Source: Thermoleophilia bacterium
Lineage (GTDB): Bacteria > Actinomycetota > Thermoleophilia > Gaiellales > SKUG01
NCBI GenBank assembly: GCA_025964555.1
Contig: JAOPYQ010000027.1
Coordinates: forward strand, 111,462 to 175,461
Reading direction: 5' to 3'
Length of the DNA: 64,000 bases
Within the stretch, counting starts at the first letter, position 1. Each line of letters begins with the position of its first letter. Positions 1 to 48,225 of this stretch are shown here, one piece after another. Both the position numbers and the translations under genes were made by a program. The notes under the pieces were generated by a model. The model worked only from the letters and a program-made list of their open reading frames with translations. It had not been told where the DNA came from and did no database searches.

Positions 1-3000
1 CGTTGGCAGATAGGCGTCGTCGGTGAATCCGTTGTGCTCGTCGTCGACCATGAGTTCGATCGCGCCGCCGTCGTATGCGGCGTTCACTTCGCCGGCCAGA
101 TACTTGGCGTGCATGTTGTAGCGATGCTCGACGCGGATGTCGCCGCCGGACGCCGGGATCGATGCCTGGTAGGAGACGGCGGTCCAGACGCGATCACCAT
201 CGAAGCCGGAGTTGACGTTCGAGGTCGGCAACGACTGGTCGCCGACGCCGTATGCCTTGGTGCCACCTGCGGCCCAGCCTGCGGCCGTCGTGGTGTTCCA
301 TGCTCCACCCGTCGCGCCGCTCGTACTCGGCGGTGATACGCCACCGCCGACGGACGCGCCGCTCGACGGCGTCGGGCCGCTCAGGCAGCCCGCGCTCGTG
401 CTCGCCTCGAAGTCCACGGTGCAGATCGGCGACCCGGCTCCGGCTGCGGGCGTGAAGGACGTGACGTTGCCCGCGGTGGTGCCAATCAGGTTGCCGTCGA
501 CGTAGATGCGGTAGGACGTGACGCCCTTGAAGTCCCACGAGGGCGCCCAGGTCAGTGCCGTGCCGACGGGGATCGAAGCGCCCGTCGCCGGCGTCAGCAG
601 GTCGAAGGCGTTCGGCGGGGTGGTGTCGGGCACCGACAGCGCCAGGAAGCTGAACGGGAACGTCGCGGCGTTGCCCACGTTGTCGTACACCTTGACCGAC
701 CAGTTGTGCGGCGCCGTGGTGCCGACGACCGCGCCGCCGAGGATCTGGTACGTGCCGCTGCTCGTTCCCGCGAGGTTGGTGGCGACGACCGTGCCGTCGA
801 CCACGAGGTCGTACTTGGCCACGCCGCTGCCGCCATCGGTGCCGGTGGACCACGAGAACGTCAGCATGCCTTCGTTGACCGTGGCGGTGTTGCCGGGGAA
901 GGTCGCCGTCAGTCCACTCGGAGCGATCGTGTCGATGTTGATCGTGCGCGGTGCACCGGCCGAGGTGACGCGTCCGGCGCTGTCGAACGCGCGCAGCGAC
1001 CACGTCGTCGGGCCTTCGGGCAGCACGATCGGCGACGAGAAGCCTGCCGTCGCGCCCGTGAGGACGTACACGTTGGCTCCTATCGTAAGCTCGATGCGTG
1101 CGAGGCAGTCGTCGTCGGTCGCGGTCCAGCTGAACGCGGGCGTGGTATCGGACGTGTACGAGTTGGCGGCCGGGCTCGCGAAGGCGATGGTCGGCGCGGC
1201 GGCGTCGACGCGGACGTTCATCGGCGACGGCGTGGAGTTCGTCGTCAGGCCGAAGTTGTCCTTCGCGACGACGCGCCACGTGTGCGTGCCACCGGCGAGC
1301 GGCGCGGTGACGGTGTAGCTCGTCGTGGCGGCGCCGACCGAGGTGGCGAGCACGCCGTCGACGTACACGTCGTAGCCTGCCAGGCCGCTCGTCGCATCGG
1401 ACGAGGCCTGCCACGTGAGGGTGGGGGTGGCGCTCGTGTAGGTCGGATCGCTCTCGCACGTCGGCGCACCGGCGCCGTTGGTGATCGCCGGGATCGCAGG
1501 CAGCGCGGCGGGGGCAATGAGGTTGAACGCGGTCGGCGGCACCGAGTCGTTCACGACCGTCAGCGACGGCGTGTCGGTGAAGTTGCCCGCGAAGTCGTAG
1601 GCGCGCACCCACATCGTGTAGGTCCCATCGGGCAGCAGGCCGTAGTCGCGCGACACGTTCGCGGACGTCAGGGTCGTCGACGTTGCGGCGGGCGGACCGG
1701 CCGGGTCGACCCAGAACTCCTGGTACGCGATGCCGCTCGCCACGGGCAGCGCGGGATCGGTCGGCGCCGACCACGACACGACGGTCGCGACGCGCGTGAG
1801 TGTCAGGTCCACGATCGGCGGCGTACGATCGAGGATGAACGTGCGCGTGACGCTCGTCACGGAGCCCGCGGTGTAGGGGTCGAACTGCTCGATGCGCCAC
1901 GTGTGGCTGCCGTCACCCGGATCGGCGGCAAGCGTGTGCTGGGTCGTCGGGTGCACCTGGCTGCCCACGTTCACGCCGTCGAGCCACACGTTGTAGCTGG
2001 TCGGCGCAGGTCCGCCGTCGCTCGGCCAGTGCCAGTCGAGGAGGGGCACGACGTTCGTCGCCGCGCCGTTGGCCGGCGTGTCGAGCAGCGGCACGGGAAT
2101 CGCGCCGTAGCCGGTGAAGAGCACCGGCGCCGTGTCGCGCGTGTTGCCGACCAGGTCGAGCGCGCGAACGAAGACCGTGTGGCCGCCATTGGTGACGCCA
2201 CTCACGAGCGTCGACGTGGTGCCCGCAGGCAGCGTTGCCTTGATCGCGCCGTCGACCCACACCTGGTAGGCGGCGGCGGGAGCAAGTCCGCTGTCGGCGT
2301 CGGACGACGCGCTCCATGCGACGTTGACGAAGCCACGGACGGTCTGGCCGGCGGTCGGGGCCGTGACGGCGAATGCGGTCGGCTGGATCGTGTCGATGCC
2401 GAAGCTGTAGGGCCCGAAGCTCGCGGCGTTGCCGAGCGCGTCGTAGGCGACGAAGCGCCACGTGTGCGCGCCATCGGCCATCGCTGCGGCCGGCGTCCAG
2501 CTGCCCTCGGTGCCGCTCGTGACCGCGGCGGCGCTGGCGGAGCCGTCGAGGAAGACCTCGACGCGGGTGAGGCACGTCGCGTCCGTCGCGTTCCAGTCGA
2601 GCGTCGGCGTGGTGTCACCGCTCCAGCTGCCCATCGCAGGCGAGTTGAGCGAGCCGGACGGCGGGGTCGTGTCGACCTGGATGTTCGTCGGGTAGGCCGG
2701 CGTCGCGTTGACGAAGTTCGCCTGGAAGTCGAGCGCACGCACGCCGAGCGAGTGCGCGCCTTCCGTCAGCGCAGGCGTCGTCCACGTTGTGGCCGGTGCA
2801 GGGACGGTCGCGTCGGGAGCGCCGACGCCGTCGACGTACACGTCGTAGTGCGAGAGGCCGGATTCCGCGTCGCTCGACGGCGTCCACGAGAACGCGGGGG
2901 TCGTGGTCGCGTAGGTCGGCACCGCGCCACAGGTCGGGGCCGGCTGCCCTGTCGTGATCGCCGGTAGAGCGGGGTTGGTGGGCAGGTTGAGCGCGAAGGT

Positions 3001-6000
3001 GGTCGGCGGCGTGATGTCGAAGATGACCTTGGCGATGTCACCTGCGGCGTCCACGGTGTTGGTGACGTTGCCGACGTTGTCGACCTCGACGAGGCGGTAG
3101 CGGTAGCAGGTCGGCTGCACCACGGAGGTATCTACGTACGGGCTCGTGGGATGGCCGATCGGCAGCGGATACGTGGCGTAGCTCGTCCACACGCCACAGG
3201 TGTTGGTGGCGATCGTGTACGGCGCGCTCTGTCGCTCGATGCGCCACGTCGCGATGCCCGAGCCTGCGCCGTCGCCACCGACGGCGTAGGACAGGTCGAC
3301 CATGAAGTCGGTGATGAGCCCGTTCTCCTGGTCGAGCGTCGCGCCGGTCGGAGCCGCGCCATCGACGTTCACGGTGAACGGGATCGTGGTCATCAGGCCG
3401 CTGCCGTTGGCGACCTGCACCACGGGAGCTACGCCAGGCGTGGTGGCGGTCGGCGACCAGGCGTAGCTGCCGTTGTAGAGGCCGCCGGACGTGTAGATGA
3501 ACGTCGACCCGAGCGCCGGGAACACTGCCGCGCCAGTTCCCGATTCGGGGTCGGTTGCCGCGACCGAGATGGTGAAGTTGATCGGGCCCGTCGGTGCTGC
3601 CTTGACCCAGATGGTGTCGGGCGCGGAGAGGTACTGCTCGCCCGGGTTGGTGCCTTCTGCCAGCGTGACGGACGCGCCGGTCGGGGCGGTCGTGTCGACC
3701 ATCCGCGCGGCAGAGACGGGCGAGAAGCCGACGTTGCCGACGTTGTCCGTGGCGGCGACGCGATAGCGGTAGCAGGTCGCATGCGCGAGCGTGTCTGCGT
3801 AGGACGCGCCGCCCGCTGGACCGACCGCGACCCAGGTGGCCGACCACGAGCAGACGCCACCGGCGAGCGTGCCGGTCTCGCGCTGGAGCTGGTAGCCAGC
3901 GATGCCGGAACCGGTGCCGTCGTTGCCGGCGGTGTAGTTGACCGTGAGGGCTGTCGAGGTCGTGTAGCCGCCCGGGTGCGTGACGGTCGCCGCGACCGGC
4001 ACCGCTGCATCGGAGATCACTTCGAACGGCAGGTTGAGCGAGCCGAGGCTGTTGGATCGCACGGCGGCGTTGAGGCCGGCGGGCGGCGCGCCGGCAGCAC
4101 CGGTCCACGAGTAGGTGCGGGTGAAGTTGGGGCCGGGGCCGGGCATCACGCCATTGCCCGTGAAGCCGGCAGCGAGGGCGGGGAACGTGACGTCGAGGAT
4201 CCCGGATGCGGCGGCCGCCGTGGCGTTCGCGTCGAACGTGCCGCTCGTGCCTGCGTTCGTGTTGACGAACAGGCGCGTCGGGTTGGCGAGGTACGTCCAC
4301 TGGGTGCCGGTGTTCTCGGCGAGCGTGATGGAGCCGGTCGGCGGCGTCAGGTCGATCTTGGTGACGTCGGTGCCGGTGAAGGTGCCGACGTTGCCGACGT
4401 TGTCGGTGACGAGCAGGCGGTAGCGCGCGCAGGTGCCGTCGGCGACGACGTCGTTGCGCGTGCCGGCGACGGTGCCCGCCCCGCTCGAGACGGTGGTGGT
4501 GTAGCCCGACCACGTGATGCAGGTGCCCGCGCTCAGCGTCGCGGTGTCACGCAGCAGAGTCCAGCCCTGGATGCCGGAGCCCGCGCCATCCCCGCCACTG
4601 CCAACGTTCACCACGATCGTCGTGGACGGGTTGTAGGAGTTGGGGTTGGTGACGGTGCCCGCGGCCGGGAGCACGGAGTCGGGCGTGAACTCGAACGGCG
4701 TGGAGGCGTTGTTGACCGCGGTCGCGTCGAATGCCTTCGCGTTGAGCGTCGGCGGGTCGGCGACCGCGCCCGCCGTGTTGAAGGAGTACGTCTGCGAGTA
4801 GCGATTCGCCGGGCCGATCGGCACGGTCTGCGACGCGGGCATGCCACCGGTCCAGCCGGCACCGGCCGAGCTGTACTCGACGCGGTTGATGCCGCTCGGA
4901 TCGCTCGCGATGGTGCGCACGTCGAAGGAGTAGGAGCCGGCCGGTGCGGTCGGGTTGTACCAGAGCACGTTGTTGGTGCCGACCGGGCCGGCCCAGTGGG
5001 TGTACTGCGACGTCTCGTTGTAGGAGTCGAAACCGACGAACGGCGGGAAGTTGTCGAGCAGCACGGAGATCGAGTTGGTGGCCGACGGGTTGCCCGCGAC
5101 GTCGAAGCTCGTCGCGGTGAGCGTGTACGTGCCGTCGGCGAAGGTCGAGGTGGCCCAGCTGCAGGTGAAGGTGTAGGCGTTGTAGGCGCCGCCGAGCGTC
5201 GCCGGGTCGCAGATCGTGCCGGTGCCGGGCGCCTGCGGTCCGGTCCAGGTGAGCTTCACCTTGGCGATGCCGGTGTGCACGTCGCTGGCGGTTCCCGAGA
5301 CGTTGAAGGTGCCGCCCTGGACGCTGCCGGACAGCGGCGCACCGATGTTGACGAGCGGTGCGACCAGGTCGACGCGTCGCGCCGTCGTGGGCGTGCTCTG
5401 GCCGACGTTGCCGACGTTGTCGGTGACGTCGAGGCGGTAGCGGTAGCACTGGCTGCCGAGCGCGGTGACGTCGTGGCTGTAGGACGCCGGCGCGATGCCG
5501 ACCCCGCTCGTGACGGAGGCCCACGTGTTCGCGAACGCGCCGCAGCCGTCGTTGGTGAGCGGCGCGGTGTCGACGAACAGGTTCCAGCTGCCGAGGCCGG
5601 ACTCGAGCGCACCTTCGGTGCCGGCGCCGAGCGTGACCGCGACGTTCGCGGTGATCTGGTTGCCGTTGACGACGCTTGCGGCCATACCGGTCGGCGCGGT
5701 GCCGTCGAGGCGCACCTCGAATGGCACGGTGCCGGAGTTGCCCGCCCCGTCGAATGCCGTCGCGACCTTCGCACCCGGTGGGGCGAGCGCGCCGGGGTTC
5801 GCGAACGTGTAGGACATCGTGTAGGCGTTCGCGACCGGGACCGGCGAGGTCGACGTCGCGTTGGTGATGCCCGCGGCCGGGGTCCAGCCGGCGCCAAGTC
5901 CGGGGAACTCGACGCGGTTGACGTTGCTGCCTGCGTCGGATGCCGTCACGCGCGCGTCGAGCTGGTAGGCGCCCGGAGCGGCGTTCGGGTTGACCCACGC

Positions 6001-9000
6001 CACGCTGGCGACCGAGTGCATGGCCGCGCTGCCATAGTCGTTCCAGCTGTGCCAGGCGCGGACCGGAGCGATGTTGTCGACCAGGTAGGTCCGCGTCTGG
6101 ATGACGGACAGGTTGCCGGCACGGTCGCGGGACTGGATCTTGATCGTGTAGATGCCGTCCATCGCCGGGAGCGTGGAGTTCCACGAGCACGACCAGGTCA
6201 GCGCGGTCCACGGTCCACCGAACGCGACGATCGGCGGGCAGGCGTTGCCGGTGAAGTCGGGGGCGGTTCCGGCGTCGGGTCCGTCCGGGCTCTCGTAGGT
6301 CACGACGACCTGGTCGATGCCGCTGCCCGTGTTGGTGTACTCGATGCCGCTTCCGGGCCACACGTCGTCGGCGGTGCCGGTGATGGCGAACGTGCCCGAC
6401 TGTGCGGAGCCGTTGGGCGGGCCGGTGAAGCCGACGTCCGGCTGGCCGAAGTCGAACTTCATGAAGCCGTTGTCGGCGATCGTCGTCATGTTGTCGACGT
6501 TGTCGAACACGCGGACGCGAGTCCTCCAGCAGAACGCGTCCTTGTAGTCGGCGATCATGTCGAAGTTCGGGTCGTTGAGGTAGTGCGTGATGTTGAGCGT
6601 CGTGCCGTTGACGGCGGGACCGGAGTAGCCGGTGATCGACGAGCCGTCGACCCACGGATCCCACGCGCCACACGCGTTGTCGGTGAGCGGCGCCGTCTGC
6701 ACGTCCATGATCCAGCGGCCGATGCCTGAGTCGGCGTCGGTACCGAGCGGCACGCTCTGGGGATACGTGACGGTGTTCTGCAGGCCCGTCATGGGCGGGA
6801 CGGTCGCCGGGCTCGTCGGCGCGAGGCTGTCGGGGCGGATGTCGAAGTCGAGCGCGGGCGAGCCGGTCGCTGCGCCACCGGTGTCGTAGGCGGTCGCGTT
6901 GTTGAGCGCCGGGTCGCCGATCGCGCCGGAGCCGGAGAAGGCGTAGTCCCACGTCCAGGTGTTCGCGGCGCCGACCACGTTGTCGCTGCCACCCGCGCCC
7001 CATGCTGCGCCTGCGCCGAGGTTCGGGAAGTCGACGCGGTCCATGCCGGCGCCGGGATCGCTCGCGGTCACCGTCGCGCGTGCAACGCCGGGATCGACGG
7101 GACCCGAGGGCGCAGGGTTGAACCACAGCAGGTTGCCACCGGGCGAGTAGAGGTAGTTGGAGAGGTTGCCGGCGGGCTCGGTCCAGGAGGTCCAGTTCGC
7201 TGTCGGTGGGCCCAGGTCGATGCTGATCCCGTTGGTGCAGCCGGTCGCCGCTGCGTTGGTCGCGACGTCGACGCCTCGCACGCAGACGTAGTACGTCGTG
7301 CCGTTGACGAGCGCGAGGCCTGAGCGGGTGAGCGTCGTCGCCGTGAGGGGCGCGTTGTCGGCCCACGTGACCAGTGCGCCGGCTGCGCAGTTGGCGCCTC
7401 CCGCGATCGTGGTGATGCAGTACTGGTACTTCTGGAGGCCCGATGCGACGCCGACGCCGGGCGCCGGGTCTGCGACCGCGCTCCAGTTGGCGCTCAGCGT
7501 GTTGGGGCTGCTCGTGTAGCCGACATCGGCGCCTGTGCCGTCGTTGATCGTCGCGGGCACCGGCGGGGCGATCGTGTCGACGCGCTGGCCATCGGAGGAG
7601 ACGGTTCCTGGCGTCGCGTTGCCGGCGACGTCGGTGCCGCGAACGGTGGTGTAGTAGAGCTCGCCCTGGACGAGTGCCAGGGCGGCGCTCGTCTCGGTGA
7701 TCGCCGTAACGTTGTTCGTCCAGTTCTTGACGATCGTGCCCGAGCACGCAATGCCGGTGGAGATGCAGTACTCCCACGACGCGATGCCGCTGAGCGGATC
7801 GCTGCCGCCCGGCCAGTTCGCGGACGCGGTCGTGAGCGACTGCAGCCAGGCGATGTCGGCGCCGGTGCCGTCGAGGACCGCGGGCGGCAGGATCGGCGCG
7901 ACGTTGTCGACGCGCTGTCCGTTGGAGCACAGCGGGGGAGCGGTGACGTTGAGCGCGGTGTCGTACGCGCGCACGCACGAATAGTAGATGGTGCCGTTGG
8001 CGAGGGTCAGTCCGCCGCTCGACTGGTTGAGCGTCAGGCCGGTCGCCGTCCACCCCTTCGTGGGTGTCGCCGCGCAGTCGGCGCCGGTCGGCGAGGTGGT
8101 GAGGCAGTACTCGTAGTGGTCGATGCCCGCGGGGTCGGTGGCGCCGTCCCAGTTGCTCAGCAGCGTGGTGGTGCTCGTCGTCCACGTCACGTCGCCCGGT
8201 CCGGCGCCGTCGCGGGAGGTGCCGAGCCAGGTCGGCGGGCCGACGTCGATCGTGATGCCGTCGCTGCAGGCGAGCGCGCCGTTGTTGGTCGCGACGTCGA
8301 CCGCACGCACGCAGACGCGGTACGTGGAGCCGTTGGTGAGCGTCAGGCCGGCACGGGTCACCGACGTCGCGCCGAGCGGCACGTTGTCGGTCCACGCGAG
8401 CGTCGCGGCGCCGGCGCAGTCGGTGCCGGCGGCGGTCGTGGTGATGCAGAACTGGTACTTGTCGACGCCGGAGGCGAAGCCGACGCCCGGCGCAGGGTCG
8501 GTGACGCCGGCCCAGTTGGCGCTCAGCGTGGTGGTGCTGGACTGGAAGTCGGTGTCGGCGCCGGTGCTGTCGTTGACGGTCGCCGATGCGGTCGGTCCCA
8601 CGGTGTCGACGCGCTGGGAGTTCGACGTCGCCAGCATCGTGCCGCCGTTGCCCGCGTTGTCGTAGCCGCGCACGGTGGTGTAGTACGCCTGGCCCTGGAC
8701 GAGCGTCAGGCCGGCGCTCGTCTGGGCGGCGGTGACGCCCGTGCTCGTCCAGTTCTTGGCGATCGTGCCGGCGCACGACGGGAGCGTCGAGATGCAGTAC
8801 TCCCAGCGGTTGAGGCCGGACAGCGCGTCGCTGCCGCCGGGCCAATTCGCCGACGCCGTGGTGAGCGACTGCAGCCAGGTGAGGTCCGCGCCCGTGCCGT
8901 CGTTGACCGCGGGCGGAACCGTGGGCTCCACCGCGTCGACCGTCTGGCCGTTCGAGCAGAGGGTCGCGCCGGTGTTGCCGGCGTTGTCGGTCGCGCGCAC

Positions 9001-12000
9001 GCACGAGTAGTAGGTGGTGGCGTGCACCAGGCTGAGCGCGTTGCTCGTCTCGGTCAGCGCGAGCGCATTGCCGGTCCACGACCTGGTCCCGCCACCGGCG
9101 CAGTCAGCTCCGGTCGCGGAGGTCGAGAGGCAGTAGTCGTAGCTGCCGATGCCGTTCGCGTCGGTCGCGGCGCTCCAGTGGCTCGACAGGGTGGACAGGC
9201 TCGTCGTCCACACCACGTCGGTCACCGGGCCGACGCCGTCGCGCGACGCGCCGGCCGGCCACACCGGCGGGATGCCGTCGATGAGCACGCCGTCGGAGCA
9301 CGACGATCCGCTGACCGCGTTGCCGGCGAGATCCCAGGAACGGATGCAGACCCGGTACGTGGTGCCGTCTGCGAGCGCGAGGCCCGAGCGCGTGAGCGAC
9401 GTGCCGGTCAGCGGCGCCGTGTCGGTCCAGGCCACGGTCGCCGCGCCGGCGCAGTCGGCGCCGCCAGCGGTAGTGGTGATGCAGTACTGGTACTTGAGCA
9501 GGCCGGAGGCAGGGGCCGGGTCGACGACGGTCGGCCAGTTCGCGTTCAACGTCGTGGCGTTGGACTGCACGTCGATGTCGGCGGCGAGGCTGTCGAGCAC
9601 GGTGTTCGCGGCGAGGGCGGGCGTCGACACCGTGTCCTTGCGCTGGCCGTTCGAGCATGCCGATCCGGCCGAGGGGTTGCCTGCGTTGTCGTACACGCGC
9701 ACGCACGCGAAGTACTGGGTACCTTCGGTGGTCGCGATGGGCGCGGCGGAGACGCTCGTCGCAAGGGCGTTGGTGGTCCAGGTGCGCAGCGCGCCACCGG
9801 CACAGTCGGCGCCGCTCGCGGACGTCGTGATGCAGTACTCCCAGCGGTTCACGCCCGAACCGATGTCCCCGCCACCCGACCAGTTCGCCTGGACCGTGCT
9901 GGCCGGGGTGTTGGTCTGGTTGATCCAGGTGATGTCAGCCGCGGTGCCGTCGTTGACGGTCGGGAGCGTCGGCAGCAGGGTGTCGACGGTCTGGCCGTTG
10001 GAGCACTGCACGGTGGAAGCGTTGCCCGCGGGGTCGTTCGCGCGAACGCACGAGTAGTAGAGGCCGCCCTCGGTGAGCGTCAGTCCGCCGCTTGTCTGGT
10101 TGAGCACGAGCGCGTTGTTGGTCCAGACCTTGGTCGCGCCCGCTGCGCAGTCCGAGCCCGACGGAGAGGTGGAGAGGCAGTACTCGTACTTCGCGACCGT
10201 GTTCGAGTCGGTGGCTGCCGACCAGTTGCTGCCGAGGGTGGTCAGGCTGTTGACCCAGGTCAGGTCGCCGGCGGCGGCGCCGTCGCGCCAGAAGGAGCCG
10301 CCAGGCCACGCCGGCGCGGTGTTGTCGACCTTGTAGGTGTTCGACGCGACGACGCGAACGTTGCCGGCGACGTCAGTGACGGTGAGCTGCAGTTCGTAGT
10401 CACCGTCGATGACTGCCGTCGTGTCCCAGGAGCAGGCCCAGGTCGGCGAGCTCGCGCCCGCGCACGTCACGCCTGTCGGCAGCGGGCCGGCGGGTGAGGG
10501 CGTGATGCGGCGCCACTGGAGTGAATGGGTCGCCACGCCGCTCGCGGCGTCGCTGGCGGTGCCGGACACCGCTACTGTGCCGCGGTTCCAGCTGCCGGTC
10601 GCGGGTGCGGTGATCGCGCCGTTCGGGAGCACGGTGTCGATTCGGAACTGGCCGCACGCACCGACGTCGGGCGCCGCGCATGACGTGGCGGTGAAGTTGT
10701 TCCACGCGCCGATCTGGTCGTCGCCGTTGAAGACGGAATCGTCCTCGACCGTGCGCCCGCGCATGTAATAGGTGCCGTCCGCGAGCGCCGGGGAGGTCCA
10801 GTCGTTGGTGGCGCCACCGAACGTCTGGCCGAAGGTGGAGTTGCCGGTCTGCACCACCGTGGCACAGGTCGCGTTCGAGCAGATCTGGTAGTTGATGTGG
10901 TGGTACCAGTCCGGATCGTCGAGGTCGGCGCGCAGGCGCGGCGTCGAATCGTTGGTCCAGCCGGTCGCCGAGATGGTGGTGGGTGCCGAGAGTCGCTGGT
11001 TGGCCGCGACGCCCGGCGTGTTGGTCGTGGCAGCGCCGAAGTTGATGAACGTGCTGAGCGAGTTCGTGTGGAGCAGTACGTTCGTGTTGTTCGCGCCCGT
11101 GTCGAGGACGACGAGCGCGTACTCGACGAAGACGTGGTCGCTCACGCCCAGGATGTTCGTGCCCGGATTGACCGTCATGTTCGGGATCGTGATGTTCGAG
11201 ATCTGGTTGTTCAGGGCGAACACGACGGGCGCGCTCTGCACCCAGTCCGTGAGCGCGACCGGAGCCGGCGCGTCCTGCATCTCGGTGAACACCGCGTCAC
11301 TCGGCGACGCGAGGCCCTTCCAGATGCGTGCCTTGACCGCGAGCGTCAGCGGGTTCGCGGTAGCCGAGGTCACCTGGATGCGGGCCTGCGCCGAGTACGG
11401 ACCGAGGGGCAGCGTCACGCCGCCGAGCGATTCCTGAGCCCAGCCGAACTGACCGAGCCCCGCGCCGTTGTTGAGCGGGGGGTTGCCGTCGACCGGAAGC
11501 GGATGCGTGGCATTGGTGACCGGCGCCGCTTCCGGCACGGTGGTGTTGCCGTTGGACCAGAACATGTACTCGCTGCCGACCGGCTCGTCGACGTCGCCGA
11601 TGGAGGTGCCCGTGTCGAGGCCACCAGGAGGCGTACCGAACAGGCCATTGACGGTGCCGCTGCCTGGCACGTACGCCGGCGACGGATAGAGCCACTGCGG
11701 GTAGCTCGACGCCGGGTCGAGCACGTACGGCAGCGCGATGCCGCGATCGTCGATCGTGACGCTCAGCAGGTCACCGTCGAGCTTCCACTCGAGGTCCTTG
11801 ATGCGGCGGCCTGCGGCGTTCTGCAGGAACGGCTTGGCGAGCACCACGTCGGCGCCGTAGTGGAGCGAGCCGTCGGCGGCGATGACCGGGCCCTTGCCGC
11901 CCTTCCAGCTGAGCTTCCACCTCCAGGTCCGCACTCCCTGGCTGCGGTGGACGGCGATCGATTCCTTGAGGCTGCCCCAGCCGACCTGCTGGACGACGTC

Positions 12001-12543
12001 GTACTCGGTGGTGGAGTACACCGCGCCGAGACGGTACGCCTGCGCCGGAACCTGCGGCGCGCCCTGCAGGTCCCAGCTGGCACGCTTGCCGCCGGGCAGG
12101 GCGATGTCGAGGCGCCCGTCGAGCGTCCTGGGGAAGGAGACGACCATCGCATCGAGGTCCGTGGTCGGCGTGCCGAGCTTGCGGATCAGCGAGCGGACGA
12201 CCCTGGCCTGGCGAGCGGTTCGGATGCAGGTCCAGATCGTCGACGTGCGCCGGCCGACCTTGCGGGTCGACTTGAACGCACCGAAGCGGCGAAGCTGCGC
12301 GCGCTGCGTGGCGGTCAGTCGGCGGGTCGAGCTGACAGTCGTGGCGCAGCGGATGCTTCGGGTGACGATCCGGGGAACCGGCGTCGCAGCGGCTGCTTCG
12401 GGCGCTGCGGTGCGTGCAGCGGGGGCGGCGAGCGCAGCCGTTGCGGTGGTCACGAGCAGTGCCACCAGGACGGTCGCGAGCAGCACGACGGCACGAACGA
12501 TCGCTCGTCCCGCATGCCGTCGATTCCCCCACGAAGCCCTCAC
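1..12543 (-). CDS. Giant secreted multi-repeat surface protein (>4180 aa; C-terminus runs off the window start): signal peptide, ~650-aa unique N-terminal region, then many Ig/FN3-like modules
   Basis: Absent from the ORF track. None of the listed minus-strand ORFs between 1 and 12643 is in the frame whose codons begin at coordinates divisible by 3, which fits a frame with no stop inside the window. Hand translation of that frame gives Arg-poor, GC3-rich protein. It starts at GTG 12543 (VRASWGNRRHAGRAIVRAVVLLATVLVALLVTTATAALAAP..., signal-peptide-like) and still reads ...AYDGGAIELMVDDEHNGFTDDAYLPT at position 1. Recurrent motifs: C[YA]RYR[LV]xxTDNVGNVG; module borders D[TS]xxP; SxSDxxSG[LV]xxYxVxVDG; Y[QE]YC[IL][ST]T. 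The exact start codon is uncertain. Confidence 0.8.
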   Translation of the reverse strand, partial: MRASWGNRRHAGRAIVRAVVLLATVLVALLVTTATAALAAPAARTAAPEAAAATPVPRIVTRSIRCATTVSSTRRLTATQRAQLRRFGAFKSTRKVGRRTSTIWTCIRTARQARVVRSLIRKLGTPTTDLDAMVVSFPRTLDGRLDIALPGGKRASWDLQGAPQVPAQAYRLGAVYSTTEYDVVQQVGWGSLKESIAVHRSQGVRTWRWKLSWKGGKGPVIAADGSLHYGADVVLAKPFLQNAAGRRIKDLEWKLDGDLLSVTIDDRGIALPYVLDPASSYPQWLYPSPAYVPGSGTVNGLFGTPPGGLDTGTSIGDVDEPVGSEYMFWSNGNTTVPEAAPVTNATHPLPVDGNPPLNNGAGLGQFGWAQESLGGVTLPLGPYSAQARIQVTSATANPLTLAVKARIWKGLASPSDAVFTEMQDAPAPVALTDWVQSAPVVFALNNQISNITIPNMTVNPGTNILGVSDHVFVEYALVVLDTGANNTNVLLHTNSLSTFINFGAATTNTPGVAANQRLSAPTTISATGWTNDSTPRLRADLDDPDWYHHINYQICSNATCATVVQTGNSTFGQTFGGATNDWTSPALADGTYYMRGRTVEDDSVFNGDDQIGAWNNFTATSCAAPDVGACGQFRIDTVLPNGAITAPATGSWNRGTVAVSGTASDAASGVATHSLQWRRITPSPAGPLPTGVTCAGASSPTWACSWDTTAVIDGDYELQLTVTDVAGNVRVVASNTYKVDNTAPAWPGGSFWRDGAAAGDLTWVNSLTTLGSNWSAATDSNTVAKYEYCLSTSPSGSDCAAGATKVWTNNALVLNQTSGGLTLTEGGLYYSCVRANDPAGNASTVQCSNGQTVDTLLPTLPTVNDGTAADITWINQTNTPASTVQANWSGGGDIGSGVNRWEYCITTSASGADCAGGALRTWTTNALATSVSAAPIATTEGTQYFACVRVYDNAGNPSAGSACSNGQRKDTVSTPALAANTVLDSLAADIDVQSNATTLNANWPTVVDPAPASGLLKYQYCITTTAGGADCAGAATVAWTDTAPLTGTSLTRSGLALADGTTYRVCIRSWDLAGNAVSGSSCSDGVLIDGIPPVWPAGASRDGVGPVTDVVWTTSLSTLSSHWSAATDANGIGSYDYCLSTSATGADCAGGGTRSWTGNALALTETSNALSLVHATTYYSCVRATDNAGNTGATLCSNGQTVDAVEPTVPPAVNDGTGADLTWLQSLTTASANWPGGSDALSGLNRWEYCISTLPSCAGTIAKNWTSTGVTAAQTSAGLTLVQGQAYYTTVRGYDNAGNGGTMLATSNSQRVDTVGPTASATVNDSTGADTDFQSSTTTLSANWAGVTDPAPGVGFASGVDKYQFCITTTAAGTDCAGAATLAWTDNVPLGATSVTRAGLTLTNGSTYRVCVRAVDVATNNGALACSDGITIDVGPPTWLGTSRDGAGPGDVTWTTSTTTLLSNWDGATDPAGIDHYEYCLTTSPTGADCAATPTKGWTATGLTLNQSSGGLTLANGTIYYSCVRAYDTALNVTAPPLCSNGQRVDNVAPILPPAVLDGTGADIAWLQSLTTASANWPGGSDPLSGIASWEYCISTGIACSGTIVKNWTNNVTAITETSAALALVQGELYYTTVRGTDVAGNATPGTVSSDGQRVDTIAPPVPATINDGTGADVGYTSSPNTLSANWSAVADPAPGVGVASGLQKYQYCITTIAGGANCAAGALVTWADNAPLTATTLTRSGLALVNGTTYYVCVRGVDVATNAAATGCTNGISIDLGPPTANWTSWTEPAGNLSNYLYSPGGNLLWFNPAPSGPVDPGVARATVTASDPGAGMDRVDFPNLGAGAAWGAGGSDNVVGAANTWTWDYAFSGSGAIGDPALNNATAYDTGGAATGSPALDFDIRPDSLAPTSPATVPPMTGLQNTVTYPQSVPLGTDADSGIGRWIMDVQTAPLTDNACGAWDPWVDGSSITGYSGPAVNGTTLNITHYLNDPNFDMIADYKDAFCWRTRVRVFDNVDNMTTIADNGFMKFDFGQPDVGFTGPPNGSAQSGTFAITGTADDVWPGSGIEYTNTGSGIDQVVVTYESPDGPDAGTAPDFTGNACPPIVAFGGPWTALTWSCSWNSTLPAMDGIYTIKIQSRDRAGNLSVIQTRTYLVDNIAPVRAWHSWNDYGSAAMHSVASVAWVNPNAAPGAYQLDARVTASDAGSNVNRVEFPGLGAGWTPAAGITNATSTSPVPVANAYTMSYTFANPGALAPPGAKVATAFDGAGNSGTVPFEVRLDGTAPTGMAASVVNGNQITANVAVTLGAGTEGALESGLGSWNLFVDTAPLTNDGCGAFANTWASVTSGVGIAPASYSHDVTALGSQCYRYRLDVTDNVGNVGQSTPTTARRVDLVAPLVNIGAPLSGSVQGGTFNVSGTASDVHTGIAKVKLTWTGPQAPGTGTICDPATLGGAYNAYTFTCSWATSTFADGTYTLTATSFDVAGNPSATNSISVLLDNFPPFVGFDSYNETSQYTHWAGPVGTNNVLWYNPTAPAGSYSFDVRTIASDPSGINRVEYSSAGAGWTGGMPASQTVPIGPANRYSQTYSFNTAGAVADPPTLNAKAFDATAVNNASTPFEFTPDSVLPAAGTVTNPNSYNPSTTIVVNVGSGGDGAGSGIQGWTLLRDTATLSAGTCITWSGYTTTVSSGAGTVAGTRNDVVADGTCARYRLLVTDNVGNVGTFTGTDVTKIDLTPPTGSITLAENTGTQWTYLANPTRLFVNTNAGTSGTFDANATAAAASGILDVTFPALAAGFTGNGVMPGPGPNFTRTYSWTGAAGAPPAGLNAAVRSNSLGSLNLPFEVISDAAVPVAATVTHPGGYTTSTALTVNYTAGNDGTGSGIAGYQLQRETGTLAGGVCSWSATWVAVGPAGGASYADTLAHATCYRYRVAATDNVGNVGFSPVSAARMVDTTAPTGASVTLAEGTNPGEQYLSAPDTIWVKAAPTGPINFTISVAATDPESGTGAAVFPALGSTFIYTSGGLYNGSYAWSPTATTPGVAPVVQVANGSGLMTTIPFTVNVDGAAPTGATLDQENGLITDFMVDLSYAVGGDGAGSGIATWRIERQSAPYTIATNTCGVWTSYATYPLPIGHPTSPYVDTSVVQPTCYRYRLVEVDNVGNVTNTVDAAGDIAKVIFDITPPTTFALNLPTNPALPAITTGQPAPTCGAVPTYATTTPAFSWTPSSDAESGLSHYDVYVDGVGAPDATVPAPATTWTTPALTEGAHSLGVRALDFQANFVNATPAYPTNIQVDTTPPSGSLNSPAMGSWSGDTTPTLDWNATDATCLTRVEVFLDGSASAAAVTSGTEGSWTPAAAMADGAHTWRFVAYDALGNAASFGPYSFGIDTIQPTAFAVTAPTAGQTVRGFVNVAWSASSDADSGLAPAAAYQVWVDGAIKATLPAGTTSTLVSGVTNGGHTVFVRALDLVGNTRDTAPVLFTGYGAIPVPLLDTPANGAATNVVPLLDWHWPSDGGPAPTSYNVWLDGVNVGSQVHPTTQHTLAADPGDGSHTWRIEQFDPYTAGSVTSVTRTFILDRTPPIVDLTLTRVATVVSWSAPTDPALPVASGIAYQEFWVDPAGPPAATSTTLTSANVSRDYGLLPDGTYTMWVRAYDFAGNFTDTPSLTVVNDSVPPTAFNLIAPAALPAIPAITNGAGAPTCESDPTYTSATPTLTWQASSDATSGLAGYDVYVDGVLATSVGAATTSYTVTAPLAGGTHTWRVVAKDNFGLTTNSTPSPMNVRVDAAAPTIAFASPAANSYTSDTTPAFSWTATDDDCLARIELTIGANVYVLTGATAGFSSPIVLPEGPTTWSLRAFDSAGRVTSAGAPRTINIDTIAPSGLTATFPGNTATVNEGMLTFSWSTGTDGGSGVAKYDLVVDGTVVATNLAGTSSGTYQILGGAVVGTTAPHNWSVKVYDNVGNAATFPFSFLALSVPDTTPPNAFDLLTPATGASIPVGTALTWAPSWDFKGVTSYRIYVDGNLIGTTAGNVTSFTPAAGAGSPICTVDFEASTSAGCLSGPTPSSGASVGGGVSPPSTSGATGGAWNTTTAAGWAAGGTKAYGVGDQSLPTSNVNSGFDGDRVWTAVSYQASIPASGGDIRVEHRYNMHAKYLAGEVNAAYDGGAIELMVDDEHNGFTDDAYLPT
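7200..10300 (-). repeat. Three tandem ~1.03-kb super-repeats inside the giant gene, each made of three ~114-aa FN3-like modules (nine modules in total)
   Basis: Signature strings recur with constant spacing on the + strand. gatgcag(t/a)actggtact occurs at 7414, 8443 and 9478. gatgcagtactccca occurs at ~7762, 8791 and 9829. gaggcagta occurs at 8101, 9126 and 10184. Sub-period is ~340-348 bp and super-period ~1029-1038 bp. Outer boundaries are approximate. Confidence 0.7.
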
Positions 12544-12689
12544 CCGTGTTGTATCGGTCGTTCGCGGGATGTTCGTGAGTCGTTTGGGCGATTTTCGGGA
12601 GCGTGGTGCAACCGGCGGCGCCATGCGGCCTACGACCGTTCAACGCATGAACTTTTCGGTGGTTTCTCGTTGACGAAGACTGGTCGGAT

Positions 12690-14381
12690 TCAGGTCAGTT
12701 CAGCGACGGAACGCGGACGTTCGACTGACACATCGGAGCCGAGGAGCTCCATCGCACGCTCTGCCATCGCCGTGATCGTGAGGCTCGGATTGACGCCGAC
12801 GTTCGCCGGCATCGTGCTGCCGTCGACGACGAGCAGGCCCTCGTAGCCGAAGGCGCGGTGGCGAGCATCGACCACGCCGCGCGCGGGGTCGGCGCCGATC
12901 GCGCAGCCGCCCAGCAGGTGCGCGGTGATGGGGATGTTGAAGAGTGCCTCGGTCAGCCCACTCTGCGGAATGCCGCCGATGTAGTCGGCGAGGCGCGAGG
13001 CGGATTCGTTGGCGATCGGCAGGAAGGTGGGATTCGGCCGACCGACGTCCTGGGCCGTCGAGTAGCGGATGCCCCGCCCGAGCAGGCGACGCCGACCACG
13101 CAGCTGGATGGCGTTGTCGTACGACTGCATGACCAGCACGAGGAACGATCGTCGTCCCCAGTGCTGCGGCCAGGTGATGCGCGCGAAGCGAACGGGATGC
13201 CGGAGCACCTGGCCGACGAACTTGAGCGGACGGCTCACGCGGGTGCCGTCGCCGACGAGCAGGGTGGACAGCATGCCGATGGCGCCGCCGCCCGCGCCAT
13301 AGGTGACCGGCTCGATGTGGGTCTGCGCGTCGGGCCAGATGCTGCTCGAGATCGCGACGGTCTGCGAGAAGTCGTGCTCGTCGGTGCGGGCGGTGACCGC
13401 GAGGATCGACTCGGAGTTGGTGCGTACGAGGTGACCGACGCGATCGCTCAGTCGCGGGAGCGACCCGGTGAGGCGCTGGCGCAGCAGCAGCTTGGTGCTG
13501 CCGAGCGAGCCCGCGGACACCACGACTCCCAAGCGGGCGCGGAAGGTGCGGCGGCGATGGCGCAGCCAGGCACCCGGACGGGTGGTCTCGACCTGCCAGC
13601 CGTGCGAGCCGTCGGCGTCCGTGTCGGGTGTGCCGTCGAGGCCGAGCGGAACGAGCCGGGTGACCTCGCGGTCGGCGAGGATGCGCGTGCCGGCACGCTC
13701 GGCGAACCAGAGGTAGTTCTTGCGGAGCGTGTTCTTGGCGTTGTAGCGACAGCCGACCATGCAGGCGCCGCAGCGGCGGCATCCGGAGCGGCGCGGTCCG
13801 TCGCCGCCGAAGTAGGGGTCGTCGACCTCCACGCCGGGCTCGCCCAGGAAGACGCCCACGCGGGTCATCTGGAAGGAACCCTCGACTCCGAGGTCGCGAC
13901 CGAGCTGCCGGATGTATCCGTCCGTGACGCCCGCGGGTCCGTAGGTCGTCACGCCCAGCATGTGTTCGGCGGTGTCGTAGTGCGGCGCGAGCTCGGCCTT
14001 CCAGTCGGCGAGGTCCGACCACTGGTCGGCGAGGTAGAAGGCGTCGTCCTTGGGTCGGTACAGGGTGTTGGCGTAGCCGAGGCTGCCGCCGCCCACGCCG
14101 GCGCCGGTGCCGATGAAGATGTCGCGGAAGAGCGAGAGGCGCAGCACGCCGCGCATGCCGAGCTTCGGCGCCCAGAAGAAGCGGCGCAGGTCCCAGGTGC
14201 TCTTCGCGTGCTCGTGGTCCTCGAAGCGGCGCCCGCACTCGAGCATGAGCACCGACTCGCCGCGTTCGGACAGCCGCAGCGCGGAGACGCTGCCACCGAA
14301 GCCGGACCCGACGACGATCCAGTCAGCGTCGAAGCCGTCGGTGTCGCGCGGGGCGTCGGCGGTGGCGTCAGCCTCGGCCAT
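12690..14381 (-). CDS. GMC-family FAD oxidoreductase (cholesterol oxidase ChoD-like)
   Basis: 563-aa ORF with N-terminal FAD fold DWIVVGSGFGGS. Overall resemblance to actinobacterial ChoD-type GMC oxidoreductases (CRRCGACMVGCRYNAKNT segment; C-terminal GMC region DGSTMPANVGVNPSLTI). Confidence 0.85.
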   Translation of the reverse strand: MAEADATADAPRDTDGFDADWIVVGSGFGGSVSALRLSERGESVLMLECGRRFEDHEHAKSTWDLRRFFWAPKLGMRGVLRLSLFRDIFIGTGAGVGGGSLGYANTLYRPKDDAFYLADQWSDLADWKAELAPHYDTAEHMLGVTTYGPAGVTDGYIRQLGRDLGVEGSFQMTRVGVFLGEPGVEVDDPYFGGDGPRRSGCRRCGACMVGCRYNAKNTLRKNYLWFAERAGTRILADREVTRLVPLGLDGTPDTDADGSHGWQVETTRPGAWLRHRRRTFRARLGVVVSAGSLGSTKLLLRQRLTGSLPRLSDRVGHLVRTNSESILAVTARTDEHDFSQTVAISSSIWPDAQTHIEPVTYGAGGGAIGMLSTLLVGDGTRVSRPLKFVGQVLRHPVRFARITWPQHWGRRSFLVLVMQSYDNAIQLRGRRRLLGRGIRYSTAQDVGRPNPTFLPIANESASRLADYIGGIPQSGLTEALFNIPITAHLLGGCAIGADPARGVVDARHRAFGYEGLLVVDGSTMPANVGVNPSLTITAMAERAMELLGSDVSVERPRSVAELT

Positions 14382-15318
14382 GCGGCTCGGACCAGTCAGG
14401 TTCGGGACCGCGCGGCACGATGCCTGACGGGTTGAGCTGGTCGTGCGTGACGAAGTAGTGGCGCTTGATGTGGTCGAAGTCCACGGTCTCGGCGATGCCC
14501 TCGACCTGATAGAGCTCGCGGGCGTGGGCCCAGAGACTGGGGTAGTCGACGATCCGGTGCAGGTTCGTCTTGAAGTGCGTGACGTACACCGCGTCGAAGC
14601 GCAGCAGCGTCGTGAACAGCCGCCAGTCGGCCTCGGTGATGCGGTCGCCCGCCAGGTACCGGCGCTCGGCGAGCATCCCCTCGATGCGGTCCAGGCTCGC
14701 GAACAGCGCGTCGTAGGCGTCGTCGAACGCGGTCTGCGACGTCGCGAACCCGCACGCGTAGACGCCGTTGTTGACCGTGGCGTAGACCCACTCGTTGATC
14801 GAGTCGATCTCCTCGCGCAGGTCTTCGGGGTACAGGTCGAGCTCGGGATGCTCGGCGAACTCGTCGAACGCCGAGTTGAGCATGCGGATCACGTCGCTCG
14901 ACTCGTTGTTGACCACGCGCCTGGTCTTCGTGTCCCAGAGCGTGGGCACGGTGATCCGGCCCTCGAAGGTCGGGTCTGTGGCGAGGTAGCCCTCGGAGAG
15001 GTACTGCCACCCGTTGATGGGATCGGTCTCGCCGTTCGCGGGGTCGCCGTCAGGTGACAGGTTGAAGCGCCAGCCGCGGTCGTCTCGGATCGGGTCGACG
15101 ACGGTCATCCCGATCGCCGATTCGAGGCCCTTGAGGCGGCGCACGATCATCGAACGGTGCGCCCATGGGCAGGCCTTGCACACATACAGGTGGTAGCGAC
15201 CCGCCTCGGCGGGGAACTCGCTCGACCCGTCGCTGGTCACCCAGTCCCGGAAGCGGCTCTGCTGGCGCTTCCACGAGCCATCGGCGCCCGTTTCCTTGAT
15301 GAACTGTGCCTGTGCCAT
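14368..15318 (-). CDS. Glutathionyl-hydroquinone reductase (Xi-class GST, YqjG/ECM4-like)
   Basis: Hallmark CPWAHR motif. Start placed at MAQAQFIKE (ATG 15318); the 88 upstream codons of the listed ORF are Arg-rich junk. Overlaps the start of the downstream GMC gene by 14 nt. Confidence 0.85.
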   Translation of the reverse strand: MAQAQFIKETGADGSWKRQQSRFRDWVTSDGSSEFPAEAGRYHLYVCKACPWAHRSMIVRRLKGLESAIGMTVVDPIRDDRGWRFNLSPDGDPANGETDPINGWQYLSEGYLATDPTFEGRITVPTLWDTKTRRVVNNESSDVIRMLNSAFDEFAEHPELDLYPEDLREEIDSINEWVYATVNNGVYACGFATSQTAFDDAYDALFASLDRIEGMLAERRYLAGDRITEADWRLFTTLLRFDAVYVTHFKTNLHRIVDYPSLWAHARELYQVEGIAETVDFDHIKRHYFVTHDQLNPSGIVPRGPEPDWSEPHGRG

Positions 15319-15338
15319 GGTCCCGCTCCCTCCGCGTC

Positions 15339-16046
15339 CTAGAACGGAGCCTCGGTGGAGATGTCGCGCTCCGGAGTCGGCTCCTTCATCGCACCAGCAT
15401 AGGCAGGTACGTCCTTCTCGGCTTCCGAGCCGGTCGACACGACAGCCTGGTACCACTCGTCGAGCGCCTCGGCGGTTGCCTTGGTGCCGAGCTTGGTCAC
15501 CGCGGCCGGCGGGCAGCTGAGTCCCTTGCCCCAGGCGGCGGAGAAGAGCCCCTCGATGTCGCGGCGCGGCGCGATGACCCACTTCTCGTCAGCGTCGACG
15601 TAGTCGTCGTCGAGCGCCTTCACGAGGGCGTCGGCATCCGGCACCTTGGTGCCGGTCCAGACGGCAACCCCGCCGTGCTCGAGGTCGTGGACGACGAAGC
15701 CGTCCTCGATCGGGGAGTCGTAGATGCCGAACGGCGCCCAGTCCTCGTAGTGCTTGCCGGTCGTCGGCGGGAAGCTGTCGCTCAGGCGCTTGCCCTCGTC
15801 GACGTGCTCGGCCTCCTGGAGCTCGTACGTGCCGAACACGCAGCCCGCGTCCACGAGGTCCTTCCCGGCGGTGCCCAGCGTGTCGGTGAGGTCCTCGTCG
15901 GCATCGGGTGCGTCGACGGTGCGGATCTTGACGGGCCCGTCGGTATCGCTCGACTGCTTCGGGCTGGAATCGTCACCGCAGCCCGCCGCGAGGAGCGCGG
16001 CGAGCACGAGGGCGGTGAAGCTGGAGAAGGTGCGCATGACTGACAT
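15339..16046 (-). CDS. Lipoprotein, DUF3105-like
   Basis: Signal peptide with lipobox LLAAGC. Acidic mature protein with an EHGGVAVW-type segment that I recall from DUF3105. Confidence 0.7.
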   Translation of the reverse strand: MSVMRTFSSFTALVLAALLAAGCGDDSSPKQSSDTDGPVKIRTVDAPDADEDLTDTLGTAGKDLVDAGCVFGTYELQEAEHVDEGKRLSDSFPPTTGKHYEDWAPFGIYDSPIEDGFVVHDLEHGGVAVWTGTKVPDADALVKALDDDYVDADEKWVIAPRRDIEGLFSAAWGKGLSCPPAAVTKLGTKATAEALDEWYQAVVSTGSEAEKDVPAYAGAMKEPTPERDISTEAPF

Positions 16047-16084
16047 GGGGTGCGCCTACCCGGCCTCGCGCGCCCGACAAACCG

Positions 16085-19000: not shown

Positions 19001-19150
19001 CATCGTGCCGATGCTGAACGGGAAGTCGAAGTCCGGGAACAGCTGCTGTCGCAGCTGGGTGGCGCCGACGATGCCGCCGAGCAGCACGAGGACGGTGGCG
19101 AGCAGGACGACGGATCGGCGCGCGAGGCACCACGTGACGAGGGCATGCAT
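16085..19150 (-). CDS. RND-superfamily efflux permease (AcrB/HAE-like, 12-TM, 1021 aa)
   Basis: Length, two large extracytoplasmic loops, and two hydrophobic blocks with typical RND repeats (e.g. GALFAVIVIFLFLRS and SLAHPFTILAPILFSFIGSFGAL). Confidence 0.9.
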   Translation of the reverse strand: MHALVTWCLARRSVVLLATVLVLLGGIVGATQLRQQLFPDFDFPFSIGTMAAPGVDAATLDEQVAKPVERAVATIEGVEGVTTVASDGQLRLYTELAYGSDSKELERLVTERIAKLDLPDIVEDPEFAGGFQEQAVVLATLSATDGDLAGLTRDAAEIQADLESVDGVARVDVGGGSDPQVSVTLEPSALERGITAQAVADAIESSRTRTNAGIVPGPGGAPVGLVVEGADLGSAGELGQLRVGGTQLADVATIVESDAADGGYASVNGDPALTISVFRETGKDEVTAVDGTIDVLDTAEKRLDGNAVSVLYESASDIRSSIMGLIIEGSLGALFAVIVIFLFLRSVRGTLVAAISIPTSIVFGILAAWMLGLTINIITLAGLTIAVGRVIDDGIVVLENIHKHLERGATRHRAMIDGTSEVAVAIASSTIATAAVFLPIGLVGGLISEIFLSFSIIVTAALLASLLVAVTLIPVVGSYVLRPSGRPHDPNEDTLARAVIPATKFGIRWRWPVLIVAILSMVAVFGAVGAGAIPVQFLPSEGASQVIGTAQLPPGTSVEQARRLLAPLDEEIAKVDGLKDVQLTYGIPSGNAAFDPTIGSSTAEFFFTLEDGADGEAAERKLRTFGLKEYDDGFSVMVLTDGPPSGTFQVNLEGDDQASIATAATQVDELLHKRANGWDLVEIEAQAAQEVPQLLVRAKADAPVSADAVQAALRGVTTPITVDEDGVLPVVVSGGGTRVSGDPKQLGKLPVATGDGSTLPLARVATFEQASSPLFVNRVEGRLSGSITARMLGEDTAGTTKDIRAAVEKLDLPKGVTLDWEQGDAAFVNEMFKDMMIAMLVAITLVFFVLVVFFGSLAHPFTILAPILFSFIGSFGALIVTQRALGLPAMIGQLLLIGIIVSNSILLVDAALKLRRQGVPRDEALIQAARLRVRPVLMTAAATIAALTPLALGISGEGGIISQSLGTVVIGGLLVATLLTLVIVPAVFRLLDRDRDMTDLTDDPREELPTEPRPLAGSTSA

Positions 19151-48085: not shown

Positions 48086-48225
48086 GCATGCAAGTGCCCA
48101 GAAGATGGCGACGTCCCCTTTCCCGCGTCGGACCCGCCCTGCCTGAGCTTCGATTCAGGTTCGCCTCGCGTCTCATGCGCGTGTCGAGTCGATGCTCGGT
48201 ATGGTCGCGACCTGCCGACGACGGT

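Follow-up and report, generated by a model that had tools for sequence, protein, structure and literature searches.

A giant secreted protein of immunoglobulin-like modules in Thermoleophilia, a probable fibrillar-adhesin-like surface fibre with a candidate basic tether

Fibrillar adhesins, as surveyed by Monzon, Lafita & Bateman (2021, PMC8286594; 2022, PMC9210967), are long single polypeptides in which a tandem stalk of immunoglobulin (Ig)-like or fibronectin type III (FN3)-like modules joins distinct terminal domains. Nearly half of the catalogued fibrillar-adhesin-like proteins have no known anchor, which the surveys flag as an open gap (PMC8286594). Here we analyse a stretch of 64,000 nucleotides (nt) from a Thermoleophilia bacterium (contig JAOPYQ010000027.1; hereafter the window), at the start of which a giant gene lies on the minus strand and runs off the window edge. 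The gene is real and intact, and its product is a secreted protein of ~4,300 residues. We propose, with a probability of about 60%, that this acidic, Sec-exported protein of ~4320 residues (~440 kDa) is a fibrillar-adhesin-like surface fibre of a Thermoleophilia actinobacterium; this proposal is drawn from the sequences of the protein and its relatives. The Thermoleophilia, a class of actinobacteria, are abundant in soil and seldom cultured, and a literature search for adhesins or giant surface proteins in them returned nothing. The giant protein probably exceeds all other proteins of its organism in size and is probably the chief means by which the cell meets its surroundings.

The protein shares with the fibrillar adhesins the long single chain, the tandem Ig/FN3-like stalk, the distinct terminal domains and, as in many of them, the lack of an anchor that can be recognised (PMC8286594). 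In contrast to them, it has no adhesive domain that Pfam recognises, its probable polarity is reversed, and its N-domain and its modules X and Y, described below, are not in Pfam. The sortase-anchored giant Ig-repeat adhesins, such as the 7651-residue Mobiluncus mulieris adhesin (PMC10619420), are similar in being the largest type of protein in the genome, with dozens of Ig-like domains and intramolecular cross-links including disulfides; however, the Thermoleophilia family has no LPXTG motif, and its stabilisation apparently comes from paired cysteines. The Apilactobacillus kunkeei proteins Giant1-5 (PMC12863079) also have a Sec signal, 3000-8000 residues, no transmembrane helix or LPXTG, and a positively charged terminal region that is proposed to keep the protein on the negatively charged cell wall. 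In these proteins the charged region, which is SH3b-like, lies at the C-terminus, most of the repeats are alpha-helical and an N-terminal beta-solenoid forms the tip (PMC12863079), whereas the window protein has its basic region at the N-terminus and an all-beta stalk, and bears no sequence relationship to them. The RTX and type I secretion system (T1SS) giants, such as SiiE and Marinomonas MpIBP (PMC4083281), likewise carry an Ig-like extender stalk with ligand-binding domains near the C-terminus, and SiiE is among our fold matches. They differ in having no Sec signal, in their RTX repeats and C-terminal T1SS signal, and often in near-identical repeats, whereas the window protein has a Sec-type signal, no RTX, and repeats that are 31-50% identical outside the FN block and 35-66% identical among its nine FN modules. 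Finally, the M36 peptidases (NF038112/NF038111) and PF20773 share local homology with the C-terminal domain of the homologues, but the giant protein has no peptidase domain. Taken by their defining features, the window protein is neither an LPXTG protein (as judged in its homologues) nor an RTX protein nor an SLH-anchored S-layer protein. Giant surface proteins with Ig repeats are common, so that one more would not surprise a specialist, and in other respects this one is an unremarkable case of its very common class; of some interest are the lack of a sortase signal, the basic segment at the N-terminus, a fixed array of 21 modules and the triplet-wise expansion of the FN block.

The reading frame is confirmed. 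None of the six frames of the first 14 kb stays free of stops for longer than the minus-strand frame at positions 1-12639, which has 4213 codons and zero stops in translation, and from the probable start, GTG 12543, 4181 codons are visible within the window; residues are numbered from this GTG throughout. The GC content at codon positions 1, 2 and 3 is 0.59, 0.59 and 0.92, and the third-position value (GC3) stays at 0.85-0.97 in every 600-nt slice, a pattern that marks coding DNA in a genome with 70% GC. The frame is missing from the program-made list of open reading frames (ORFs) because it is open at the window edge. The 26 listed ORFs of at least 100 amino acids (aa) within positions 1-12700 are all shadow frames, which either have their GC peak at codon position 1 or 2 (giving translations with 15-32% arginine) or are the codon-aligned antisense frame. 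The original prediction, made from the DNA letters alone, had claimed a single sensible stop-free frame of more than 4180 aa, unlisted and surrounded by shadow frames, and on both counts it was right. The choice of start is ambiguous between GTG 12543 and ATG 12624, 27 codons upstream, which would lengthen the protein by 27 residues, because the upstream peptide (RKSPKRLTNIP..TDT.RVRASWGN) is kept in the ENA fragment P0010. These 27 codons, in which an imperfect 22-nt tandem repeat lies at 12557-12601, may either belong to the protein as an N-terminal extension or form a conserved leader. In the 146-nt gap between the upstream gene and the giant gene, neither an Rfam family nor a consensus for a promoter or terminator was found, and for want of an Rfam match we rejected the idea that the 5' leader holds a regulatory RNA.

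The N-terminus directs the protein to export. The signal peptide consists of an Arg-rich n-region (MRASWGNRRHAGR) and a hydrophobic core of ~23 residues followed by ALA|AP; its Kyte-Doolittle 19-mer maximum is 2.63 at aa 14, while elsewhere in the protein the maximum is 1.43. It is the sole strongly hydrophobic stretch, and there is no internal membrane helix. Equivalent signal-peptide-type N-termini are found in the homologues P0001, P0002, P0005, P0051 and P0052. Inspection and hydropathy assign the signal to the Sec type, in agreement with the signal peptide first predicted. Export by Tat was rejected: there is no NCBIfam Tat-signal match, the fit to the twin-arginine consensus is poor, and the cargo would be a disulfide-rich chain of 4300 residues. 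The whole protein is strongly acidic (net charge -143, isoelectric point (pI) 4.4; 4.2-4.6 across the whole proteins of the family), rich in Thr, Ala and Gly and low in Lys, Glu, His and Met. An enzymatic function was also rejected, as no domain scan found a catalytic domain.

The bulk of the chain is a stalk. A census with hidden Markov models (HMMs) counts 31 FN3/Ig-like modules, namely three IG, nine cysteine-paired FN, five X-Y pairs and nine of the Big_13 type (B13). Pfam recognises the giant protein by Big_13 (97.6 bits, cutoff 27) and Big_7 (62.3 bits, cutoff 24.1); on the Big_13-type block, Big_13 (86.7 bits), Big_7 (84.5 bits) and fn3 (31.8 bits) all score above their cutoffs, the fn3 match (PF00041, gathering cutoff 25) falling within aa 3190-4050. 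The matches of the first IG module to Big_13, Big_7 and Big_3_2 are partial and sub-threshold, and its HMM finds further copies at aa 2036-2158 and 2397-2499. None of the nine Cys-containing FN modules matches Pfam fn3 directly, and the X-Y units match no Pfam family. Profile-profile comparison by hhalign nevertheless joins these types, with a probability of 93% for FN against B13 and 91-93% for Y against B13 and FN, so that FN, Y, IG and B13 are linked at 90-93%; the X modules stand further apart. AlphaFold models one X-Y-IG unit (aa 2159-2500) as three beta-sandwiches with a predicted local distance difference test (pLDDT) score of 74, and the top fold matches of this model in the PDB are tandem FN3 arrays (contactins, NCAM2), the V. 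cholerae protein RbmA, the FN3 of CbhA, the D. radiodurans S-layer protein HPI, and SiiE.

The FN modules measure 110-120 aa (~112) and follow the order (A-B-C)x3, with identities of 45-66% within a type and 35-48% between types; at the DNA level this is a super-repeat of 1029-1047 nt that is 70% identical. Each has four cysteines, except F5 and F8, which have two, the cysteines C3 and C4 having been lost together. Across six proteins of the family, 47 of 48 FN modules have four, two or no cysteines, and the exception, with three, is cut by a contig end. Such even counts agree with two disulfides in each module and with an oxidising environment outside the cell, and the modules are probably stapled in this way. 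Much of this layout had been read correctly from the start: the Ig-like module after the N-terminal region (to which two further copies are now added), the nine FN3-like modules with paired cysteines (exactly nine) and the run of about nine modules of ~95 aa. Two claims needed revision. The "at least four" units ending in C[YA]RYR...DNVGNVG do exist, as the Y modules end in C[YA]RYR..(T)DNVGNV, but they number five, each made of X plus Y and the first two also carrying an IG; and the "unique" N-terminal region of ~650 aa is unique only in part, since it ends in a Y-type module.

Relatives of the protein are few and are easily missed. Word-indexed protein searches returned nothing for the C-terminal 142 aa and only P0001 and P0003 for the N-terminus, and it was an exhaustive HMMER search with a fused N-terminal and C-terminal query that revealed the family, with 50 representatives. 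P0001 is a fragment of 970 aa from a Thermoleophilia metagenome-assembled genome (MAG), ~60% identical and with the same upstream genes; P0005, also partial and from a Thermoleophilia MAG, bears the name 'laminin sub domain 2'. When the members of their clusters are counted in, the complete members are P0002 (3739 aa), P0004 (3564), P0051 (3754) and P0052 (3842). All members that carry a name come from Thermoleophilia MAGs, and the family is small, uncharacterised and seen so far only in Thermoleophilia. The gene is easily overlooked: it is not in the ORF list of the window, and in MAG annotations it is broken or mis-named. The family architecture can be written as N-domain, IG, FN x n, (X-Y-IG)x2, (X-Y)x3, B13 x9 and C-terminal domain, in which four module types (N-domain, X, Y and C-terminal domain) have no Pfam model. 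The number of FN modules is three in P0004, six in P0005 and nine in the window, that is, (ABC)x1, x2 and x3, and five in P0051. P0052 has zero FN modules, extra X-Y units and a PA14 domain, and P0002 has 23 FN modules and no X-Y block. By this comparison the nine-FN block is the length-variable part of the protein, growing by A-B-C triplets, of which close relatives have one, two or three.

The modules after the FN block are fixed in order. For these 21 modules, at aa 1779-4065, the best match lies at the same ordinal position for 21 of 21 in P0052 and for 19 of 21 in P0004. Orthologous modules are 40-68% identical to those of P0052, with comparable values against P0004 at the 19 collinear positions, versus 31-50% for the best paralogous pairs. 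This positional orthology indicates that the array is old, fixed in order and collinear with independently assembled genes. It also bears on a different explanation of the locus, namely a pseudogene, or repeats that were mis-assembled or collapsed, which is brought to mind by the frequency with which repeat-rich giant genes break or collapse in short-read assemblies (P0001 and P0005 are indeed truncated by contig ends). We consider it scarcely credible here: a pseudogene does not fit 4213 stop-free codons at 70% GC with uniform GC3, and no internal DNA repeats of at least 100 bp exceed 76% identity, with a longest exact repeat of 28 nt, which together with the positional matching of the modules makes assembly collapse unlikely.

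The C-terminus bears on the expected sortase anchor. Its visible part is the first half of a conserved domain, and the homologues that align with it, four of them complete (P0002, P0004, P0051 and P0052) and three C-terminal fragments, run 137-149 residues beyond the window edge. The full length would therefore be ~4318-4330 aa (~440 kDa), and the gene is estimated from these alignments to extend 411-447 nt plus a stop codon past the edge. A search for this extension with a 42-nt exact pattern from window positions 21-62 found no match in GTDB representative genomes or JGI metagenomes, and a protein-pattern scan with the N-terminal alignment of the giant gene found no relatives in the same two collections. 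All seven homologues end in a conserved half-Ig strand, '...HTW.V.A.D.AGN...S.QTWTFNL', and none of the seven termini has an LPXTG motif, a hydrophobic tail or membrane helix, or a basic tail. The original prediction had implied that a sortase motif would appear once the gene was followed past the edge, as would be expected from the usual layout of Gram-positive and actinobacterial fibrillar adhesins (PMC8286594), and the end of the window protein itself is unseen. Yet an LPXTG sorting signal just past the window is very unlikely given these seven termini, and no sortase gene is present among the ~25 larger window ORFs scanned.

As to what the C-terminal domain does, the complete domain in six of the seven homologues matches the NCBIfam model of myxosortase-dependent M36 metallopeptidases (best E 2.9e-10), and three members match the rhombosortase-dependent M36 model. 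The matched region covers positions ~1051-1154 of a 1604-position model, an internal, accessory part; the match is local and far below the whole-family cutoff. The Pfam InhA-like MAM family (PF20773) is matched sub-threshold in two of seven members (in P0028, 19.4 bits against a cutoff of 26.9, positions 112-151), and P0041 carries the motif WDGGTVEVSTNGGTTW, which we take to be typical of jelly-roll domains. Sequence and profile searches of the PDB, with a profile from the complete domains of the homologues, gave chance-level matches only. By these profile matches the jelly-roll-like C-terminal domain is a homologue of an accessory domain found in secreted M36 metallopeptidases and bears a weak resemblance to InhA-like MAM. 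The "lectin-like" label first given to the end of the visible chain is therefore plausible at the level of the fold, through the matches of the homologues; the window fragment alone matches no Pfam family, InhA-like MAM included, and any sugar binding is putative.

At the other end of the protein, the segment that follows the signal peptide has a net charge of +18 and two conserved cysteines. Equivalent segments with +16 to +25 are found in P0001, P0002, P0005, P0010 and P0052, the last being rich in Lys and Pro. The N-domain that comes next is all-beta, ends in LPYV(L/I)DP, is modelled by AlphaFold at a pLDDT of ~90 over aa 134-280, and matches no Pfam family. It is common to ~45 cluster representatives (including P0008, P0011 and P0014-P0050), in which it measures ~215 aa and ends in LPLPYVIDP; it usually stands right after the signal peptide or a transmembrane segment, and in several proteins directly upstream of PA14 or BNR repeats. 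The middle N-terminal region, modelled at a pLDDT of 70-85 in its core, may be a beta-sandwich like those of carbohydrate-binding modules (CBMs); P0051 and P0052 carry PA14 in its place.

We propose the following for the fibre. After export, the protein would stand on the cell or extend from it; an FN3 module is ~3.5-4 nm long, and ~32 such modules would give a length of the order of 100 nm. The basic segment, judged by its charge, is the best candidate for a cell-proximal tether: the N-terminus would hold the protein non-covalently, either through its charge to anionic wall polymers or as an uncleaved signal-anchor. The C-terminal domain would then be presented at the far end as a distal binding tip, perhaps together with the N-terminal beta domains, the target being a surface, a polymer or a neighbouring cell. 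The family also offers a candidate for attachment of a new kind, independent of sortase. The prediction of a "giant adhesin or envelope-layer protein" has in this respect gained the Sec-type signal, the stalk of 31 modules, the even cysteine counts, the acidic composition and the fold matches to tandem FN3 arrays, RbmA, an S-layer protein and SiiE, and has lost its implied sortase signal.

Several points weigh against the fibre or its orientation. First, the true C-terminus of the protein lies outside the window, and by Pfam the visible protein contains no recognised adhesive domain. Second, charge is the single indicator of the tether, and P0051 is without the basic segment. Third, Gram-positive fibrillar adhesins usually carry the adhesive domain at the N-terminal end and their anchor at the C-terminus, the opposite of what we propose (PMC8286594). 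PA14, a recognised adhesive domain, is near the N-terminus in P0051 and P0052; considering that PA14 stands beside the N-domain in relatives, binding modules can sit near the N-terminus, and the polarity is uncertain. Fourth, the Foldseek matches of the N-terminal model to CBM4, CBM22 and transglutaminase sandwiches are weak: their TM-scores, normalised over all 526 residues of the model, are 0.11-0.15, and the fold of this model can be named no more closely than as several beta-sandwiches.

The same data can be read in two other ways. The chain of beta-sandwiches may pack as a lattice or sheath over the cell, as a structural envelope or S-layer-type protein, with which the acidic, Thr/Ala/Gly-rich composition low in Lys, Glu, His and Met would agree, as would the fold match to D. 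radiodurans HPI (TMq 0.42, root-mean-square deviation 4.7 over 222 columns). Moreover, a fixed-order array of 21 individually conserved modules is easier to reconcile with a specific assembly than with a mere spacer. However, scans of the whole protein or its segments against Pfam and NCBIfam found no SLH domain or other known S-layer anchor, ~440 kDa is far above typical lattice-forming S-layer proteins, and an FN number that varies among relatives (0, 3, 5, 6, 9 and 23) is awkward for a fixed lattice; we regard a lattice as unlikely. Alternatively, the protein may be released and act as a matrix or biofilm scaffold that is not retained on the producer and cross-links polymers or cells via both ends. 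The absence of a known anchor, the fold match to the V. cholerae biofilm scaffold RbmA and the putative binding modules at both ends (PA14 in relatives and the MAM-like C-terminus) are consistent with this, and the anchor-less A. kunkeei giants do occur in culture supernatant (PMC12863079). What speaks for a retained fibre is that an acidic protein has a conserved and strongly basic segment at its N-terminus, which points to attachment to an anionic envelope; nothing else separates the two, and release is in our view an improbable alternative. Export through an RTX-type route finds no trace in the protein, as HemolysinCabind and RTX matches are absent from it and RTX is also absent from the C-termini of the homologues.

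Beyond the surface fibre itself, one may speculate about a Thermoleophilia-specific surface organelle, in which the N-terminus holds by charge or as a signal-anchor, the 21 non-interchangeable modules have partners of their own, and the reach is tuned by A-B-C triplets. This extended picture is rather unlikely; if it were true, both the anchoring polarity and the length-tuning rule would be undescribed for Gram-positive fibrillar adhesins. The features of the gene are collected in Table 1.

Table 1. Features of the giant gene and its product, from the N-terminus to the window edge
Feature	Residues (aa)	Window position	Strand	Basis
Possible N-terminal extension or 5' leader		12544..12624	-	Peptide conservation in P0010
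Signal peptide	1-39	12427..12543	-	Inspection and hydropathy
Basic segment	40-129	12157..12426	-	Charge count
N-domain	130-345	11509..12156	-	AlphaFold model; shared by relatives
Middle N-terminal region	346-519	10987..11508	-	AlphaFold model
Y-type module	520-637	10633..10986	-	Self-BLAST to aa 2317-2395, 39-50% identity; alignment
Ig-like module IG1	638-742	10318..10632	-	Partial Big_13, Big_7 and Big_3_2 matches
Nine FN3-like modules	743-1778	7210..10317	-	Alignment and identity matrix
Two X-Y-IG units	1779-2502	5038..7209	-	Alignments, HMM census and AlphaFold model
Three X-Y units	2503-3180	3004..5037	-	Alignment
Nine Big_13/Big_7-type modules	3181-4035	439..3003	-	Pfam and HMM census
First half (146 aa) of conserved C-terminal domain	4036-4181	1..438	-	Alignment to seven homologues, 32-48% identity

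The neighbourhood of the giant gene is partly conserved. The order DUF3105 (lipoprotein), omega-type glutathione S-transferase (GST) and giant gene is common to the window (12690-21562, minus strand) and the loci L002, L003 and L005, with an RND/MMPL transporter and/or Lon further upstream; this shared order speaks for a gene that is real and maintained. Only in the window and in L002 does a GMC oxidoreductase gene separate the GST from the giant gene, and a search with this neighbour returned no record; in L003 and L005 a convergent epimerase gene follows the giant gene. Compared with the MAG, the housekeeping neighbours Lon and RND are 85% and 74% identical, and the giant protein 61%. The DUF3105 neighbour was found only on a 1825-nt Logan contig of SRR13312975 (L001), which is 100% identical to window positions 14461-16285, indicating that the source organism or a near-identical strain was sequenced in that run. 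P0002, the most divergent complete homologue, has a different setting (L006, Logan SRR10178536), with two DNA methylases, Macro, bPH_2 and a DNA-polymerase-exonuclease-like gene, and this locus may be a mobile element.

The remainder of the window is ordinary chromosome, with a few features worth recording. On the minus strand, a 623-codon frame at 42636-44507 has a coding-type GC3 of 0.92 and no Pfam match at E <= 1e-5. On the plus strand, 22160-23953 is one uninterrupted ORF of ~598 aa that joins a DtxR/IdeR-type repressor (Fe_dep_repress, Fe_dep_repr_C and FeoA), a hydrophobic helix (IIAVGAATIALLVAALAAVLFV) and two cupredoxin domains (Cu-oxidase_3 and Cu-oxidase_2); it is either a membrane-tethered repressor fused to an extracytoplasmic module like a multicopper oxidase, or two genes between which a stop was lost. 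At 45680-55659, a second MMPL transporter adjoins a KAS III-type ketosynthase, two cytochrome P450s and a family-2 glycosyltransferase, and the group looks like a cluster for the biosynthesis and export of a lipid or glycolipid.

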